Shown here: positions 4,796 through 50,538 of the stretch, piece by piece
Numbering within the stretch: position 1 is the first letter of the stretch
Layout: each line of letters opens with the position of its first letter
NCBI GenBank assembly: GCA_965218415.1
Contig: CBDCKT010000003.1
Span: 1,896,904-1,960,903 of the forward strand
Direction of reading: 5' to 3'
Origin: Variovorax sp.
GTDB lineage: Bacteria > Pseudomonadota > Gammaproteobacteria > Burkholderiales > Burkholderiaceae_C
DNA: 64,000 nt
Program-made: the position numbers and the translations under genes
The notes under the pieces: model-generated
What the model was told of the DNA's origin: nothing
What the model saw: only the letters and a program-made list of their open reading frames with translations
Databases searched by the model: none

Positions 4796-6858
<2,063 letters not shown>

Positions 6859-12686: not shown

Positions 12687-12727
12687 ATGTCCGATCCCGA
12701 ATTTCAAATCCCAAAGACAAATCTATT

Positions 12728-12770
12728 GCCCGCCAAGCCCGCGCATCACCGTGCGCGGGGGAGGGCGGCG
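12728..12770 (+). promoter_or_regulatory. GC-rich hairpin just upstream of the ilvH RBS, candidate cis-regulatory RNA
   Basis: cccgcgca-tcaccg-tgcgcggg stem with outer ccgcc/ggcgg pairing; AGAGG RBS follows. Confidence 0.45.
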
Positions 12771-12790
12771 AAAAGAGGCGTCGCATCACC

Positions 12791-23456: not shown

Positions 23457-23532
23457 TCCTCGATAGCTCAGTTGGTAGAGCGCCGGACTGTTAATCCGTA
23501 GGTCCCTGGTTCGAGCCCAGGTCGAGGAGCCA
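23457..23532 (+). tRNA. tRNA-Asn (GTT)
   Basis: TCCTCGA acceptor arm pairs with TCGAGGA; D arm AGCTCAGTTGGTAGAGC; anticodon loop ct-GTT-aa; T arm GGTTCGAGCC; encoded CCA; 76 nt. Confidence 0.98.
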
Positions 23533-42551: not shown

Positions 42552-44717
42552 CTAAAGAGCGGCGCTCAGTCCCAGCCTCAGCGTGCGCGCCGAACCGGGA
42601 AACAAGTACACATGGCTGAACTGGGTCGGTGACTCTTTCCAGTAGCGGCGGTTCAAGACGTTCTCCACGGCCAAAGTCCAGCGCAGCGATGTGCCTTGCC
42701 ATTTCGTGTCGTAGCGCAGCGCGGTGTCGAAACGCGTCCACGACGGCAATTCGATCGATCCATCGGCCAGAACGTTGCGCTTGCCTTCGTGCGAGAGCTG
42801 GCCTTCGATTTCGAGCCCCGGCACGCTCGCGAGCCGGTACGCGGCTTGCGCGCGAACCACCGCGCGGGGCACGTTGGTCGGCCGCTCGCCGTTGACGGCC
42901 GGGTCGGCGATGCTGCTTTCGCGCCTGGCGTCGAGCCAAGTGAGGCCGCTTGCGAGCCGCCATGGGCCTCGGCGCCATTGGCCGCTGGCTTCGACGCCTC
43001 GATGCCGCGCCGCGCCGTCGAAGCCGATCGTGCAGGCGCCTGCTGCGGCGTCGCAGGTGTCGAGGTTGGTGGCGGGGCGGCGAATGTCGAAGTAGGCGAC
43101 CCGCCAATCGAATGCCGCTTGCGTTCCCTTGAGCCCTATTTCCCACTGGCGCGATTCGAGCGCCGGCAGTGCCTGGCCGGCGTTGCTGTAGATCGGCAGG
43201 TTCGGCACCAACTGCGATTCGACCCCTTTGCCCCAGCTCGCATAGGCCAGCAAATCGGGTCGCAATGCATAGCTTGCAGCCACCCAGGGTGTCGTGAAGG
43301 TCTGGCTGTAGGCGGTCGGGTTAGCGCCGTCGGTGCCGATGCTGGTTCGTGAAAGTCGGGTGTAGCGCACGCCGACCCAGGTCGTGAGCTGCTCGTTCCA
43401 ATGGATCGCGTCGTGGACCGAGAACTCGGTCGAGCGCTCGTTGCGATTCGTGTTCGGCGTGGTCAGGCCCGGATCGGGCGGCACGATCGCGGTACCGACA
43501 ATGTTGCCGCTGCCGACATAGTTGAACGCCGAATCATCGAAGCGATTGCGCACCTGGCTGCGGGTCAGGCCGAAAGCGAGTTCGTGCCGCACGCTGCCGG
43601 TCATCGCGCTGCCTTTGAGGCTCAGGTTGCCGGCAGTTTCGACGCGGCGTTCGTTCTCGCTGCGGAAATCGTAGAAGTCGAAAGTGCCGTCCGAGCAATA
43701 GCGGTCGAAGTTGCCTTCGGCGCCGCAGCCGAAAGGGAATGCGAGGCGGTCGTCGGTTTTGAGGCGTTGCCGGCCTACTTGCGCGCTCCAGCGCCAATCG
43801 CGCGCAAGCGCCTGGGTGAAGCGCAGGGTGCCGGTCAGCGCATCGAAGCGCGACGGCTGCGACCAGGGCTGATTATTCAGGTTGAGGTTGGGGTTCGGCA
43901 CCGCCGGCAACACGTTGCCGAGCAGGCTGAAGCCGGCCTGGCTCGGCTGCGTCTTGTGGCTTTTCTCGATCTCGAATTCGACCAGCGAATCGCGCGTGAC
44001 GCGCCAGTCGGCCGCGAGTGAAAACAGGTTGCGGTTGCCGTCGATGTTGTGCGTCTGCGGCTTCAGGTTCTCGAACGCGGCGTTGAAGCGATAGCCGAAC
44101 TGCCGGTCTGCACCGAATCGGCCGCCGAGATCGACCGCGCCGAGCAGACTGCCACGGCTCGAATATTCGGTGCGGACTTCACGCAAATCCTTTTCGGTCG
44201 GCCGTTTGACGACGTAGTTGACCAGCCCGCCCGGCGCGCTGGTGCCGGCCTGAATGCCGCTGGTGCCGCGCAGGATTTCGACCCGCTCCTTGTTGTCGAG
44301 CGGAATCGAGGTTTCGGCGCTGATCGGCAAGCCCTCGCGCTGGTAGTTGAAGCGGTTGTCGAGTACGAAGCCGCGCACCGTCAAGAAGTCCCAGTAGCCG
44401 GGCGAGTTGTACGAATCGGTGACCGACGCATCGAACTGCGTGAGGTCGGACAGGCGCCGCGCGCCGCTTGCCGCAATTTGGCCGCTGTCGATCACCGTCG
44501 CCGAGATCGGCACCGCCGAGAGCGGCATGTCGCCGAAACCGCTGACATTGGCAGCAGGCGGCGGCGCATCGGCACTGACCGTCACCGCAGGCAAGGTGCG
44601 TTCCTGTGCATGCACCGACACCGCATTTGCTATGAAAATTAGAGCTGTCAGCGCACGCAGGACGGGCGTTTCAGCCCCTTTTTTCTTGAAAACCGGGTTG
44701 TACGAAGAAGTTGCCAT
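42552..44717 (-). CDS. TonB-dependent receptor under TPP riboswitch control (thiamine/precursor uptake candidate)
   Basis: TonB box-like PAVTVSA; plug motifs VRGF and ERVEILRG; C-terminal aromatic residue of a beta-barrel; start at ATG 44717. Confidence 0.9.
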   Translation of the reverse strand: MATSSYNPVFKKKGAETPVLRALTALIFIANAVSVHAQERTLPAVTVSADAPPPAANVSGFGDMPLSAVPISATVIDSGQIAASGARRLSDLTQFDASVTDSYNSPGYWDFLTVRGFVLDNRFNYQREGLPISAETSIPLDNKERVEILRGTSGIQAGTSAPGGLVNYVVKRPTEKDLREVRTEYSSRGSLLGAVDLGGRFGADRQFGYRFNAAFENLKPQTHNIDGNRNLFSLAADWRVTRDSLVEFEIEKSHKTQPSQAGFSLLGNVLPAVPNPNLNLNNQPWSQPSRFDALTGTLRFTQALARDWRWSAQVGRQRLKTDDRLAFPFGCGAEGNFDRYCSDGTFDFYDFRSENERRVETAGNLSLKGSAMTGSVRHELAFGLTRSQVRNRFDDSAFNYVGSGNIVGTAIVPPDPGLTTPNTNRNERSTEFSVHDAIHWNEQLTTWVGVRYTRLSRTSIGTDGANPTAYSQTFTTPWVAASYALRPDLLAYASWGKGVESQLVPNLPIYSNAGQALPALESRQWEIGLKGTQAAFDWRVAYFDIRRPATNLDTCDAAAGACTIGFDGAARHRGVEASGQWRRGPWRLASGLTWLDARRESSIADPAVNGERPTNVPRAVVRAQAAYRLASVPGLEIEGQLSHEGKRNVLADGSIELPSWTRFDTALRYDTKWQGTSLRWTLAVENVLNRRYWKESPTQFSHVYLFPGSARTLRLGLSAAL
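44629..44692 (-). repeat. 64-bp dispersed repeat, copy 10 (in frame, forms the signal peptide n/h region)
   Basis: Reverse complement TTTTCAAGAAAAAAGGGGCTGAAACGCCCGTCCTGCGTGCGCTGACAGCTCTAATTTTCATAGC, encoding FKKKGAETPVLRALTALIFIA. Confidence 0.85.
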
Positions 44718-44792
44718 GACGTTCTTTCGACGCAATGGCAGGTCGGCTTGCGATGCCCGAATGGCTGGCGAGATGGCAGCCGGGCTTTTTTG

Positions 44793-44890
44793 CATGCTTC
44801 CCTGCGCGAGGATTACCTCAATCAGGTTCAAAGGGACTTTCTCAGCCGTTGCGCAACCGGTTTGATTGCGCGTCGGCACCCCTAGCGATG
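44793..44890 (-). ncRNA. TPP riboswitch 1 (upstream of the TonB receptor)
   Basis: Reverse complement: ctaggggtgcc...GGCTGAGAaagtCCCTTTGAACCTGAttgaGGTAATcctcGCGcAGGGAAGC. Confidence 0.95.
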
Positions 44891-44922
44891 TCTGCCGACT
44901 GTGCTCGGCGGACCGTTGAATT

Positions 44923-48071: not shown

Positions 48072-48938
48072 ATGATTCATCCGCTCTCCACGCCATCCAA
48101 TACGCCGACGCGATACGCGCGCGTGCTCACGATCGCCGGCTCCGACAGTGGCGGCGGCGCTGGCATCCAGGCGGACCTCAAGACTTTCGCAGCGCTCGGC
48201 TGCTACGGCATGAGCGCGATCACCGCACTTACAGCGCAAAACACGGTAGGCGTATCGGCAATTCATGCAGTGCCGCCGGCGTTTCTCGAAGCCCAGATCC
48301 GCGCGGTGGTCGAAGACATCGGCGTCGATGCGGTCAAGCTCGGCATGCTGCATGCGCCCGAAGTCGTCGAAGTGGTGGCGCGGGCGATCGACCGCTACCG
48401 GCTGCCGCATGTGGTGCTCGATCCGGTGATGGTCGCAACCAGCGGCGACCGGTTGATTGCCGAGGAAACGGTGCAGTTGCTGGTGCGCGAACTGTTTCCG
48501 CGCGCTGTGCTCGTCACGCCGAATCTCGACGAAGCGCAGCTTTTGATCGGCCATCCAATCGATGGGGTCCAAGCCTTCGAAAGCGCGGCCGAAGAATTGC
48601 TGGCGCTGGGCGCGCATGCAGTTTTGCTCAAGGGTGGGCATTTGCCCGGCGATGAGGTCGTCGATCTGCTGGCATCGAGCGACGGTAGCCGAAAGCGGCT
48701 GTCGTCGCGCCGCATCGAAAGCCGTAACCTGCATGGCACAGGCTGCACGCTGTCGTCCGCCATCGCGGCGTTCCTCGCGCTCGGCCATCCGCTCGTCGAT
48801 TCGGTCGAGCGCGCGCGGGCTTACGTGGTCGGCGCGCTGCAGGCCGGCGCGGATGTGAAGGTGGGCGAGGGCCACGGTCCGCTCAACCACGGCTTTGCGC
48901 CAGTGCCGATGCACCGGTTGCCGCCGATGGCCGGCTGA
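48072..48938 (+). CDS. thiD: HMP/HMP-P kinase
   Basis: IAGSDSGGGAGIQADLK, VLDPVM, TPNLDEA, LLKGGH and HGTGCTLSSAIA motifs. Confidence 0.95.
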   Translation: MIHPLSTPSNTPTRYARVLTIAGSDSGGGAGIQADLKTFAALGCYGMSAITALTAQNTVGVSAIHAVPPAFLEAQIRAVVEDIGVDAVKLGMLHAPEVVEVVARAIDRYRLPHVVLDPVMVATSGDRLIAEETVQLLVRELFPRAVLVTPNLDEAQLLIGHPIDGVQAFESAAEELLALGAHAVLLKGGHLPGDEVVDLLASSDGSRKRLSSRRIESRNLHGTGCTLSSAIAAFLALGHPLVDSVERARAYVVGALQAGADVKVGEGHGPLNHGFAPVPMHRLPPMAG

Positions 48939-50235
48939 GCCAGGCGGCGACGAAGGTCAGTGCCAGGGTCGGCAATGCCGAACCCCATTGCGGCGCCCAT
49001 TTGGCACACCCGTGATAGACCGCGATGCCGGCAATCCAGATCGAAGCCGCCCGCCAGTCGACGCGACGTGCGCCGACCGCTATCGCTTCAGCGCCGGTGC
49101 CGTAAAGGCCGAGACGCCCGAGTATCACGCCGTACAACGGCACGAACACCGAACTGAGCAGCAGCAGAAAAGGTTCGAGCGAATGCATCGGCAGCACTAG
49201 CGCAAAGGCGATGCACAGGGCGGCGAGCAAAAGGCCCCAGCGCCTGACGCTCCAGCGCGGCAGCAGGCTGTGGGTCGACACCGCGCCTGAATAGACATCA
49301 CCGTAGGCGTTGTCGAGTTCGTCGATGAGAATCAGACCCAGCGCCACCAGACCGCCTTGCGCGAGCAGCAAGGCTGTCACCAGCCCGGCACCCGGCTCGG
49401 CCGTGCTCACGACCATCACGCCGAGCGCATAGCACCAGATGTTGGCGAGCGCATAGCCGAGCCAGGTGCCGCTGAACGCACTGCCGAGGCCGCCTTTGGC
49501 ACTGGCGCGCTTTCCGTGACGCGCATAGTCGGCAACTAGCGGCAGCCAGGACACCGGCATCGCGATCACCAGATCGAGCGCGCCGAAGACACCCATGCTG
49601 CCGTCGCCGGGCCGCGACCAGAACGCATCGAAGCCATTGGCCGACAAGCGTGCCGCAAACTGCCAAGTCAGCCAGATCAGCGAGAGGATCACGAGCGGCA
49701 AACCGAAACGGCTCACGAACCTGCGCACCAGCTTGACCATCGATCCCGCGAGCAGCGCCAGCAGCACCGCGCCCCAAAGCAGCGTGAGGAGCCCGGTGGC
49801 GAGCGGCGTTCCGAGTTGCGTGCCGGTCGCCCCGAGCGCTTTGCCGGCGATCGCCTGCGTGCCCTCGCGCATGATCACGATCTCGAAGGTGGTCCAGCCG
49901 ACCAGCTGAACGATGTTGAGCAGCACCGGCAATCGCGCGAAGGCGCTGCCGTAGGTTGCATGCATCAATCCGGCGCTCGCGAGCCCGGTTTCACATCCCA
50001 GTCGGGCCGTCCATGCCAGCAGCCCGGCGCCCAGGCACGAGCCGATGACGATCGCAATGGTGGCGTCTCGCGTACCGACGGCTGGCACCAGATAGGCGCC
50101 GACCTGCATCACCAGAAGCCCAACGCCCAGGCTGAACCAGAGCGCAGCATGGTCGTGCCATCGGAAGACGCGCGCGTTGGCCGGCATCGGCGTCAACGCC
50201 TCGTTGGTGCCGGGAGAGGTTTCGATGTTTGCCAT
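48883..50235 (-). CDS. cytX: NCS1/CytX-like hydroxymethylpyrimidine permease
   Basis: WFSLGVGLLVMQVG, QLVGWTTFE, MPVSWLPLVADYAR; about 12 TM; TPP riboswitch upstream. Confidence 0.82.
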   Translation of the reverse strand: MANIETSPGTNEALTPMPANARVFRWHDHAALWFSLGVGLLVMQVGAYLVPAVGTRDATIAIVIGSCLGAGLLAWTARLGCETGLASAGLMHATYGSAFARLPVLLNIVQLVGWTTFEIVIMREGTQAIAGKALGATGTQLGTPLATGLLTLLWGAVLLALLAGSMVKLVRRFVSRFGLPLVILSLIWLTWQFAARLSANGFDAFWSRPGDGSMGVFGALDLVIAMPVSWLPLVADYARHGKRASAKGGLGSAFSGTWLGYALANIWCYALGVMVVSTAEPGAGLVTALLLAQGGLVALGLILIDELDNAYGDVYSGAVSTHSLLPRWSVRRWGLLLAALCIAFALVLPMHSLEPFLLLLSSVFVPLYGVILGRLGLYGTGAEAIAVGARRVDWRAASIWIAGIAVYHGCAKWAPQWGSALPTLALTFVAAWLSRPSAATGASALAQSRG

Positions 50236-50319
50236 TCGTTTGCTCCAAAGCAAAGTTCTGGCAGGTGGGCAACAATTCAGTGGCTGAAATTCAACGAGAG
50301 AGTCGTCGCGGCCATCGAA

Positions 50320-50416
50320 CCAGCTTCCCTGCGCGAGGATTACCTCAATCAGGTTCAAAGGGACTTTCTCAGTCGATTCCCACAGCCGAAGCCAGCGAAT
50401 GACACCCCTAGCGATT
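50320..50416 (-). ncRNA. TPP riboswitch 2 (upstream of cytX)
   Basis: Reverse complement: ctaggggtgtc...GACTGAGAaagtCCCTTTGAACCTGAttgaGGTAATcctcGCGcAGGGAAGC. Confidence 0.95.
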
Positions 50417-50538
50417 GGCTTCACACCGACACGGATCGGCGCAAAGCTTCACTATCTTACGCAAGCTATGAATGCTTTACACAAGTGCATCGTCGGGATG
50501 CCCGGTCAAGCGCATAGTTGGCTGCAACTGAGATCTGA

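Follow-up and report, generated by a model that had tools for sequence, protein, structure and literature searches.

The signal peptide predicted for a TonB-dependent receptor of this Variovorax genome is encoded in good part by a full-length copy of a dispersed repeat of about 67 nt, read in frame, and copies of the same repeat encode the hydrophobic regions of signal peptides in a number of other exported proteins. The repeat occurs 13 times in the window (the whole 64-kb stretch of DNA that was analyzed) and gives 822 profile matches in the 4.19-Mb genome. The start codon of the receptor is conserved, and its orthologues in sister species and in other genera carry copies of the repeat at the same place. 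The reading that we favor, and consider rather probable, is that the copy is an ancient insertion into a permissive signal-peptide region, that it replaced part of a pre-existing signal peptide, and that it is now held by selection on the protein.

The receptor gene lies on the minus strand (positions 42552 to 44717) and encodes a protein of 721 amino acids, which scored 274.5 bits against TIGR01783 (cutoff, 223.5 bits) and for which an identical public protein, P0001, has precomputed Pfam Plug (PF07715) and TonB_dep_Rec (PF00593) domains. Its orthologues across Variovorax are 69 to 75% identical. A TPP riboswitch aptamer that controls the receptor (44782 to 44893, minus strand) matched Rfam RF00059 over the full model, positions 1 to 105, at 59.9 bits (gathering score, 54.3 bits; E = 3e-9), and thiamine biosynthesis genes adjoin the receptor gene. 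The receptor is probably a thiamine-related outer-membrane transporter. The leader between aptamer and start codon (44718 to 44781, minus strand) contains a GCCCGGCTG...CAGCC...CGGGC hairpin and a conserved CGTCGAAAGAACGTC block directly 5' of the ATG.

This leader is collinear and conserved in G016, G158, G099, G088, G114, and G103, each of which has an ATG or a GTG at the corresponding position; start position and leader are kept in at least seven genomes. The first residues and the start codon are also conserved with outgroups (e.g., MAT.S in G114), and the public gene call of P0001 uses the same ATG. Five other starts were rejected. Translation from the GTG at 44879, which opens the long ORF, would traverse the riboswitch. 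Aptamer stem P1 contains the ATG at 44795. The in-frame TTG at 44735 lacks conservation, being replaced by TCG or CAC in G158, G088, and G103, and a protein begun at GTG 44621 or 44615 would have no h-region. The first-pass annotation had allowed that translation might begin elsewhere with an independent signal peptide; none of these five starts provides one. A crude gene finder placed the receptor start at 44621, and the signal peptide was lost; annotators should be warned that gene finders based on codon usage will cut off such N termini.

The receptor ORF begins with MATSSYNPVFKKKGAETPVLRALTALIFIANAVSVHA/QERTLPAVTVSA, from which we predict a Sec signal peptide of 37 amino acids (44607 to 44717, minus strand). 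Its n-region runs from M1 to R21 (K11, K12, K13, and R21, with E16), its h-region from A22 to V35 (ALTALIFIANAVSV; mean Kyte-Doolittle hydropathy of about 2.1), and its c-region comprises S34-V-H-A37, with cleavage predicted between A37 and Q38. The sequence thus has the basic n-region, the uncharged h-region of at least 10 residues, and the small residues at −3 and −1 that mark substrates of Sec and signal peptidase I; it passes the crude signal-peptide screen of this genome, and its V-H-A/Q site fits the (A/V)HA/QQ of orthologues. The precursor would be exported by an ordinary Sec signal peptide and cut after VHA.

The repeat copy occupies positions 44626 to 44692 (minus strand) and is read in frame as residues 9 to 31 (VFKKKGAETPVLRALTALIFIAN). 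Against an nhmmer profile built from the other 12 window copies, with the receptor copy left out, it scored 45.2 bits (E = 2.2e-11; profile positions 4 to 70 of 72), ranking 350th among the 822 matches. It supplies the KKK of the n-region and 10 of the 14 h-region residues, and the VHA/QE cleavage region falls outside it. K11, K12, and K13 are the reading of the repeat A-tract (AAG AAA AAA, 44679 to 44687, minus strand), where the family consensus has AAGAGAAAAG, and the repeat dyad core GCTCTAATTTTCATAGCA (GCTCT-AATTTTC-ATAGC(A), 44628 to 44645, minus strand) is read as A25 L I F I A30 (ALIFIA). Removal of residues 9 to 31 leaves MATSSYNP-AVSVHAQ, without an h-region. The first-pass annotation had proposed that a repeat copy encodes the signal peptide, that its A-tract gives the lysines, and that no signal peptide would remain without it; the sequence supports all three proposals, the first of them for the n-region and most of the h-region. 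The interval that it gave, 44629 to 44717, begins at the start codon and reaches roughly as far as the repeat does on its 3' side but coincides neither with the repeat proper nor with the signal peptide.

By sequence, the receptor copy is a typical member of the family, with a nearest-neighbor identity of 83% (family median, 81.5%) and a mean identity to other copies of 0.657 (median, 0.639). It is 79% identical to the family consensus, with agreement at 16 of 21 third positions, and its core, GCGCTGACAGCTCT-N7-ATAGCA, retains the spacing and 12 of the 14 left-core bases of the consensus.

The repeat consists of an A-rich 5' part, then GAAACGCCCG, and then GCGCAGACAGCTAT-N7-ATAGCA. One sense frame reads FKKK..TP..RAQTAI..IA, the frame-0 consensus protein core being RAQTAI-x-x-IA with a hypervariable AT-rich loop, and one antisense frame reads AI..IAVCA..AGVSATF. 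According to the crude gene finder, 585 of the 822 copies are intergenic; 488 of 821 are open in frame 0. Of 668 copies, 35 have, as the receptor copy does, leucine in place of the glutamine codon (CAG to CTG), and 17 (2.5%) have a nonpolar core, 12 of these 17 being noncoding. Both features thus exist as standing variation, and the drift from the consensus by which the hydrophobic core of the receptor copy had earlier been explained is not shown; the core then taken as ancestral is the translation of a single copy (window positions 5531 to 5597), not the family consensus. On folding, a 5-bp hairpin formed in 11 of the 12 other window copies and not in the receptor copy, where the GCUAU/AUAGC hairpin of the family is lost because the left arm carries an A-to-C change, which is common to the orthologous copies. 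A role in RNA structure was rejected, as the hairpin is weak (z-scores mostly −1.5 to +0.7) and is lost in the receptor copy. No Rfam family matched the repeat at gathering thresholds, and we found no description of it in the literature.

A strict core motif (GCGCAGACAGCTAT-N{5,9}-ATAGC) was found 150 times in this genome and not once in 40 relatives. This count is misleading, and we rejected the idea that the relatives are repeat free, since a relaxed motif and profiles show the repeat in sister species and many genera. The relaxed motif was present in 19 of 61 genera of the bacterial family (up to 66 copies) and in 76 of 148 Variovorax genomes (346 copies in G000, the genome studied here), with reversed-pattern controls almost always at 0, and G158 gave 23 profile hits in 400 kb. 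The repeat family is old and widespread in Comamonadaceae.

In G158, G016, and G126, a decayed copy sits at exactly the same receptor codons and has the rare GCTCT-N7-ATAGC variant. On the G158-type profile these copies scored 23.5, 27.2, and 17.9 bits, respectively, and in other genera the same receptor position scored 23.9 bits in G218 (full length; LFKLNRLAALIKTAQPAIFLIAY), 15.5 in G190, 11.2 in G215, and 8.8 in G211; none of 275 control windows from gene bodies exceeded 3.3 bits on the profile of the G000 type or 6.8 bits on that of the G158 type. The receptor coding sequence is 2,166 nt long in G000, G158, and G016 alike, and the N termini of the orthologues, 31 to 47 residues long, are collinear, those of repeat-poor genomes included. 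Four-fold synonymous identity between G000 and G158 is 0.61 (expected from composition, 0.43), a divergence so heavy that descent alone does not obviously explain the 79% consensus identity of the G000 copy.

Receptor orthologues of repeat-poor Variovorax have signal peptides that are collinear and of the same length, with Smith-Waterman scores of 28 to 43 against the repeat-encoded segment. Generic signal-peptide likeness was rejected as the cause, since only 0 to 2% of 502 signal-like N termini score as high. The first-pass annotation had counted a shared peptide in repeat-free taxa as evidence against itself, and this applies by half, in that the peptides of repeat-poor Variovorax are specifically similar. 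The similarity of the repeat-encoded segment to peptides of genomes without detectable DNA likeness would also fit an ancestral signal peptide overwritten later. Further, all examined orthologues of the receptor, BamB, and SCO1 are collinear; none has an empty site, and none is shorter by the length of the repeat. With no empty site seen, we infer an insertion, which would need later re-equilibration of length.

The receptor is one of several such cases. In BamB (sense orientation; 380 to 384 amino acids everywhere), the copy scored 44 bits in G000, 5 to 12 bits in V. paradoxus types, and 9 to 21 bits in other genera. In SCO1 (antisense), whose orthologues are all collinear (MNKRNAIK.IA...), the scores were 47 bits in G000, 42 to 45 in G126, 30 to 46 in G016 and G158, 20 in G055, and 3 to 5 in GC-rich genomes. 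Both proteins show the same erosion gradient across the genus as the receptor. A crude screen of the genome gave 39 candidates. For ten of these, Pfam confirmed an exported family, with the domain starting directly C-terminal to the h-region that the repeat encodes. The repeat encodes the h-region, in one orientation or the other, in no fewer than 12 of the exported proteins checked in this genome. Signal-peptide copies also lie in the genes for TPM (C2:117574), PCuAC (C3:377486), M16 (C2:782170), and DsbD (C3:550786). The occurrence of copies in both orientations argues for a repeat that inserts into genes and against an origin from one gene. The proteins with repeat-encoded export signals include the TonB-dependent receptor, BamB, SCO1, MlaA, and DctP. 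An enrichment of hydrophobic loops among signal-peptide copies (P = 6e-5) was set aside as circular, because the screen had selected for hydrophobicity.

We hypothesize that the receptor is translated from the ATG at 44717, downstream of the TPP riboswitch, and that the copy was in its signal-peptide codons, at the latest, by the time G158, G016, and G126 diverged from this lineage, and probably already when Variovorax and neighboring genera began to radiate. We infer both the direction, from repeat into gene, and the time of this insertion. It had earlier been suggested that a noncoding repeat may have become an essential targeting signal; a TonB-dependent receptor, however, needed a signal peptide before the repeat came, so the repeat replaced part of one and did not create targeting. 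Signal-peptide regions may be permissive sites for this repeat, given that its sense and antisense frames are such that a copy arriving there can take over part of an existing n- or h-region. A copy that forms the h-region would then be kept by selection on the protein and, as a fossil, would outlast the intergenic copies, which turn over. In GC-rich relatives with large genomes, the DNA likeness to the repeat may have eroded until the peptide alone remained, and in the AT-richer, repeat-rich genome studied here the copy would have stayed near the family consensus. A dual use of the element is conceivable, though we think it distinctly unlikely: the dyad and AT-rich codons such as ATA GCA might be kept inside signal-peptide codons across species and genera through a second DNA or RNA function, or there might be continued exchange of sequence between embedded and dispersed copies. 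As a second function, the element might bind a protein, or it might act as a rare-codon or low-structure stretch that aids the targeting of exported proteins. If such sequence exchange occurs, concerted evolution would couple the signal peptides of numerous exported proteins to a selfish repeat family.

Gene conversion offers another account, in which the receptor always had this peptide and an old or chance-similar stretch was repeatedly homogenized against dispersed copies. As conversion replaces sequence without a change of length or frame, the present repeat identity would be younger than the peptide, and the collinearity and equal coding-sequence length across species agree with this. Each genome's copy scores better on the family profile of its own genome, a hint of conversion: the G000 copy reaches 58 bits on G000-type profiles versus 36.6 on the G158-type profile, and the copies of G158, G016, and G126 reach 23.6, 27.1, and 18.0 bits in this comparison on the G158-type profile versus 15.9, 13.9, and 5.8 on G000-type profiles. 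By hand count, five family-diagnostic differences between orthologous copies follow their own genome and none the opposite (sign test, P of about 0.03), but four of the five are A or T in G000 and G or C in G158, which the GC contents of 63.5% versus 69% could produce. The copy is also mosaic-like, with the G000-major GAAACG type in its 5' half and the GCTCT variant common to sister species in its 3' dyad, and it is no more diverged than intergenic copies, though older than a split with near-saturated synonymous sites. However, we demonstrated no tract of conversion, an eroded 67-nt copy falls short of the length of near-identity that conversion of the RecA type requires, and G218 retains an intact copy with just one core match elsewhere in its genome. 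Profile scores and synonymous divergence could not separate conversion from compositional drift at the receptor copy, and we regard conversion as unlikely, if not negligibly so.

A rival to the ancient insertion that we favor is a recent, lineage-specific domestication along the lines of the first-pass annotation, in which a noncoding copy inserted in this lineage, drifted to hydrophobicity, and became a signal peptide. The strict-motif counts in this genome and its relatives, preservation as good as that of intergenic copies, and the rarity of nonpolar cores would suit such an event, yet the decayed orthologous copies in G158, G016, and G126 have a derived variant in common, copies are present in other genera, many such cases exist in this genome, no orthologue lacks a corresponding 22 to 23 codons, outgroups share the start codon and first residues, and the family is old and widespread by the relaxed motif. 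We rejected a recent insertion on collinearity and orthologous copies, and consider recent domestication as a whole very improbable. The direction might instead be reversed, such that a segment encoding a signal peptide, whether in the receptor, in BamB, or in some similar gene, became mobile and gave rise to the repeat; likeness to the family is seen in the 5' coding regions of receptor and BamB throughout the genus and beyond it, and the FKPN(R/W) n-region motif of orthologues is the frame-0 translation of the family subtype TTCAAGCCGAATCGG. One source gene cannot explain copies in both orientations in many unrelated genes, however, the frame-0 family consensus is polar (E, R, Q, and K/N loops) and not a signal peptide, and no mechanism of mobilization is apparent, which makes this direction quite improbable. 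Finally, RAL(A/T)A, when encoded by GC-rich codons (CGCGCGCTGGCNGC), is similar to the repeat core CGTGCGCAGACAGC, so some likeness could arise by chance or composition; the full-length match (E = 2e-11), which extends over the A-rich 5' half and preserves the N7 spacing of the dyad, and the low scores of the gene-body control windows leave this explanation a vanishingly small probability.

Both parts of this finding have known precedents, in-frame coding repeats in the Rickettsia palindromic elements (RPEs) (Ogata et al. 2000 Science 290:347, 2002 Genome Res 12:808) and a repeat-derived predicted signal peptide (Delihas 2007). RPEs, as outlined in PMC10969869, are elements of about 150 bp found in frame inside many genes. 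In that account they resemble the Variovorax repeat as short dispersed repeats that are intergenic and also in frame in unrelated genes, that are translated as a conserved peptide at tolerant sites, and that have copies common to related species. The Variovorax repeat is likewise intergenic and is also found in frame and without stops in the receptor, in BamB, and in ten exported proteins confirmed by Pfam; comparison of the receptor, BamB, and SCO1 with their orthologues did not show the copy as an insertion. Placing it among RPE-like repeats means that it works like them, not that insertion is proven. Relative to RPEs as outlined there, it is shorter (about 67 nt versus about 150 bp), it occurs in free-living Comamonadaceae, it is read in one sense and one antisense frame, and many of its coding copies lie in N-terminal signal peptides, not in surface loops; the likeness drawn here is one of way of working.

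REP/BIME elements and REPINs are also alike in numbering hundreds per genome, lying mostly between genes near gene ends, and having a small dyad and a lineage-conserved core. REPs, however, are 20- to 40-bp imperfect palindromes with a GTAG or CGTC tag, and REPINs come with RAYT transposases (PMC2817692, PMC3733652), whereas the Variovorax unit is about 67 nt and oriented, its dyad has arms of only 5 bp (GCTAT-N7-ATAGC), inspection shows no tag, and its RNA forms no significant structure. MITEs are similarly small, dispersed, and nonautonomous in appearance, with occasional in-frame fusions (PMC10969869), but no parent transposon is known for the Variovorax repeat, and no terminal inverted repeats are visible in its consensus, the ends of which (TTTAAGAGAAAAG... 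and ...ATAGCAAT) are by inspection not complementary.

The enterobacterial RU-2 repeat, which is MITE-like, forms part of the predicted signal peptide of Yersinia pestis YPO1552 (Delihas 2007, PMC2759123); there, too, a small intergenic repeat is fused in frame and its residues lie in a signal peptide predicted by SignalP. That case concerns one small hypothetical exported protein, whose homologues in other genera have unrelated signal sequences, which points to a recent fusion (PMC2759123). In contrast, the hosts of the Variovorax repeat are well-known exported proteins, and all three that we traced through relatives are ancient, with conservation that extends over species or genera. They make a concrete, checkable case of a short "selfish" repeat predicted to supply the export signal of envelope proteins in a free-living bacterium, with signal-peptide regions as a permissive niche in which coding copies survive. 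As embedded copies far outlive the intergenic family, they are usable as fossils for dating repeat families, and whether they evolve in concert with the dispersed family becomes a testable evolutionary question.

An oriented repeat of ~67 nt (consensus, TTTAAGAGAAAAGTGGCTGAAACGCCCGCTGGACGTGCGCAGACAGCTAT-N7-ATAGCAAT), for which no description was found in Rfam or the literature, occurs 13 times in the 64-kb window. A profile built from 12 of these copies, leaving out the one inside the TonB-dependent receptor gene (44626-44692, minus strand), gave 822 matches in the source Variovorax genome, or ~1 per 5 kb, and recovered the omitted copy at full length (45.2 bits; E value, 2.2e-11; rank 350). 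Its nearest-neighbor identity (83%) and mean identity to the family (0.657) are both ordinary for the family. Read in frame, it encodes residues 9 to 31 of the receptor, whose N terminus reads MATSSYNPVFKKKGAETPVLRALTALIFIANAVSVHA/QERTLPAVTVSA: the A-tract gives K11 to K13, the core and dyad give R-A-L-T-A-L-I-F-I-A-N, and 10 of the 14 h-region residues are repeat encoded. The repeat does not include the c-region and predicted cleavage site (AVSVHA/Q), which agree with the (A/V)HA/QQ of the orthologues. The proposals of the first-pass annotation that a repeat copy encodes part of this signal peptide and that its A-tract supplies the KKK are thus borne out. Its further suggestion that the core had drifted toward hydrophobicity was not established: of 668 copies, 35 have leucine at the glutamine codon and 17 have a fully non-polar core (12 of these 17 non-coding), and standing variation suffices.

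The receptor (721 aa; 42552-44717, minus strand) matches TIGR01783 (274.5 bits; cut-off, 223.5) and has recorded Pfam Plug and barrel domains. Directly upstream is a TPP riboswitch aptamer (44782-44893, minus strand; RF00059, 59.9 bits), preceded by thiE, thiG, thiS, and a thiO-like oxidase gene; thiD lies farther on, on the other strand. An NCS1-type permease gene (48883-50235, minus strand) has its own TPP riboswitch upstream (50309-50419, minus strand). Given this context, the receptor is most likely a thiamine-related outer membrane transporter. In large-genome Variovorax, the receptor gene directly follows thiE without an intervening riboswitch (loci L003 to L012); the source genome (4.19 Mb, 63.5% GC) is a small-genome member of the GTDB genus holding Variovorax. 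Elsewhere in the window, an ilvH RNA leader (12716-12783, plus strand) matches RF02993 at 85 bits, and a tRNA gene lies at 23457-23529 (plus strand).

The leader before the ATG at 44717 (GCCGACCTGCCAT..CGTCGAAAGAACGTC) is collinear and near-identical in six relatives (G016, G158, G099, G088, G114, and G103), all of which have an ATG or GTG at this position. Other in-frame starts lie within the riboswitch, are unconserved, or leave no h-region, and none yields an independent signal peptide, in agreement with the first-pass view that the receptor has no other. Between aptamer and start (44718-44781, minus strand) are a conserved hairpin (GCCCGGCUG..CAGCC..CGGGC) and a block, CGUCGAAAGAACGUC, with no U-run terminator; this segment is probably an expression platform acting on translation. 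A codon-usage-based gene finder shortened the receptor to a GTG at 44621 (CDS 42552-44621), owing to the atypical composition of the codons that the repeat supplies (GC3, 10/23); N termini of this kind are at risk of mis-annotation.

The embedded copy is not a recent, lineage-specific acquisition. The receptor CDS is 2,166 nt in the source genome and in the sister species G158 and G016 alike, and orthologues (69 to 75% identity) have 31 to 47 residues before the cleavage site, versus 37 in the source receptor. Decayed copies occupy the same codons in G158 (...TTCAGGCCAAAACACGGCCTGGCGCCCGTCCCGCTTGCGGTGGCAGCTCTCTTTTTGATAGCG), G016 (...CAGCTCTCTTTTTGATAGCA), and a third sister species, G126 (...CGCTCTCATCCTGATAGCAAAC), sharing with the source copy the left arm GCTCT (family consensus, GCTAT) and the N7 spacing. 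With a profile built from the intergenic copies of G158 itself, the scores are 23.5 (G158), 27.2 (G016), and 17.9 (G126) bits, against a maximum of 6.8 among 275 gene-body control windows. The copy is therefore older than the splits from these species. Repeat-like segments also occur at the same signal peptide site in orthologues from other genera (54 to 63% identity): G218 (23.9 bits, full length, with intact AGCTAT-ATTTTTA-ATAGCA and peptide LFKLNRLAALIKTAQPAIFLIAY), G190 (15.5 bits), G215 (11.2 bits; …ASIFIASGVHAQQ), and G211 (8.8 bits). Several orthologues have an n-region motif, FKPN(R/W), identical to what one family subtype, TTCAAGCCGAATCGG, encodes in frame 0. The first-pass annotation had held that the same peptide in repeat-free taxa would speak against a repeat origin. 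In repeat-poor Variovorax receptors, DNA likeness to the repeat is absent or marginal (G088, 6.6 bits, top 0.4% of controls), and the peptides aligned to residues 9 to 31 are similar, scoring 28 to 43, values reached by 0 to 2% of 502 signal-like N termini of the source genome and by 0.2 to 6% of the frame-0 translations of other copies. The signal peptide is thus homologous across the genus. The refuting observation named in the first-pass annotation is therefore half realized, for which age is the best explanation.

The family itself is old and widespread. A strict core motif has 150 matches in the source genome and 0 in 40 relatives, an absence that is misleading. When the core is relaxed to GCDNNCAGCTAT-N(6-8)-ATAGC, for which reversed-pattern controls were almost always 0, matches number 346 in the source genome, 25, 17, and 10 in small-genome sister species, and 1 to 4, partly at conserved loci, in many of the large Variovorax genomes; of 61 other genera sampled in the bacterial family, 19 have matches (e.g., 66, 51, and 39 core matches, 66 being the maximum). 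In G158, whose copies have a GC-richer consensus of their own, 400 kb yielded 23 profile matches. Lone copies such as GCAACCAGCTATCAATAAGATAGC are retained at conserved loci in many of the large Variovorax genomes. The source genome, with 346 core and 822 profile matches, is an exceptional expansion of this GCTAT-N7-ATAGC family.

Nor is the receptor the only host. A crude screen of the source genome gave 39 candidates for a predicted Sec or lipoprotein signal peptide with a repeat-encoded h-region, read as ..RA(Q/L)TAI..IA in sense or AI..IAVCA..AGVSATF in antisense. The 10 candidates checked belong to known exported families, with the Pfam domain starting just past the signal: TPM (C2:116679-117626), SCO1/SenC (C3:799906-800553), ABC_trans_aux (C3:230101-230790), PCu(A)C (C3:377471-377998), M16 (C2:782164-783534), DctP (C2:463029-464027), MlaA (C3:919357-920094), DsbD_N (C3:548643-550877), DUF2147 (C2:470318-470752), and PBP_like_2 (C2:1192084-1192953). 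With BamB (C2:1379174-1380328), at least 11 other exported or lipoprotein genes have a repeat-formed h-region, most in antisense. The BamB copy is in sense (MNFKRFMPVAAVGRAQTAIIIIAFGIILGAC), and the protein is 380 to 384 aa long throughout Variovorax; the 5' coding DNA scores 44 bits in the source genome, 25 to 29 in G158, 5 to 12 in V. paradoxus types, and 9 to 21 in other genera. Over its first ~70 nt, the BamB CDS (ATGAATTTCAAGCGTTT...GCTAT-N7-ATAGCA) is repeat-like in every Variovorax examined and several other genera (loci L054 [G158 C2:295506-295549], L051 to L066, and L070 to L098), and synonymous positions there are unusually conserved. SCO1, with its copy in antisense, is collinear in 13 of 13 relatives examined (MNKRNAIK.IA…), and the scores form a clean gradient: 47 bits in the source genome, 42 to 45 in G126, 30 to 46 in G016 and G158, 20 in G055, and 3 to 5 in GC-rich genomes. 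In receptor, BamB, and SCO1 genes, the embedded copy is thus ancient and eroding in GC-rich lineages. The use of both orientations in unrelated host genes argues that the repeat entered genes rather than that the family was born from one gene; no empty site was found among receptor, BamB, or SCO1 orthologues, so we infer the insertion itself.

Domestication thus holds insofar as the signal peptide is repeat derived, and not as a recent or unique event or as the creation of targeting. The receptor peptide would act as an ordinary Sec signal, with predicted export and cleavage. The repeat is suitable raw material, its A-tract giving lysines, its AT-rich loop often F, I, or L, and its antisense strand being intrinsically hydrophobic. 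Each host protein required a signal peptide before any copy arrived, so that the repeat probably took over a portion of a signal already present, at a permissive site, and was fixed there because the protein now depends on it. A coding ORF follows 92, 7, and 51 copies in frames 0, 1, and 2, respectively, frame 1 being closed by the TAG within ATAGC. Many sense copies lie in frame 0 of long open frames, e.g., in AP-rich linkers (C2:1349093 and C2:1350917), at window positions 5531-5597 (plus strand), and at other mid-gene sites; these mid-gene copies are candidate in-frame inserts.

The source receptor copy keeps 79% consensus identity (16 of 21 third positions, hand count) despite synonymous divergence from G158 (four-fold synonymous identity, 0.61; 0.43 expected from composition). 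Gene conversion between embedded and dispersed copies (concerted evolution) could account for this. Each genome's embedded copy scores higher on its own genome's family profile, and five differences at diagnostic positions side with the copy's own genome and none against; however, four of these five are AT versus GC, which genome composition alone could yield. We consider conversion a live rival, though an unlikely one. Less likely still is that the dyad has a second function at the nucleotide level. Replacement of part of a preexisting signal by an old repeat copy is the reading that we favor.

The closest analogues are the Rickettsia palindromic elements, which many genes carry as in-frame, translated copies (Ogata 2000, 2002, as described in PMC10969869), and the enterobacterial RU-2 repeat, reported to supply some of the predicted YPO1552 signal peptide (Delihas, PMC2759123). 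Unlike these, the Variovorax family is apparently undescribed in Rfam and the literature, its hosts differ in number and identity, it uses both strands, and its embedded copies are of great age. By inspection of the consensus, it lacks the terminal inverted repeats of a MITE, and it is unlike REPs in form.
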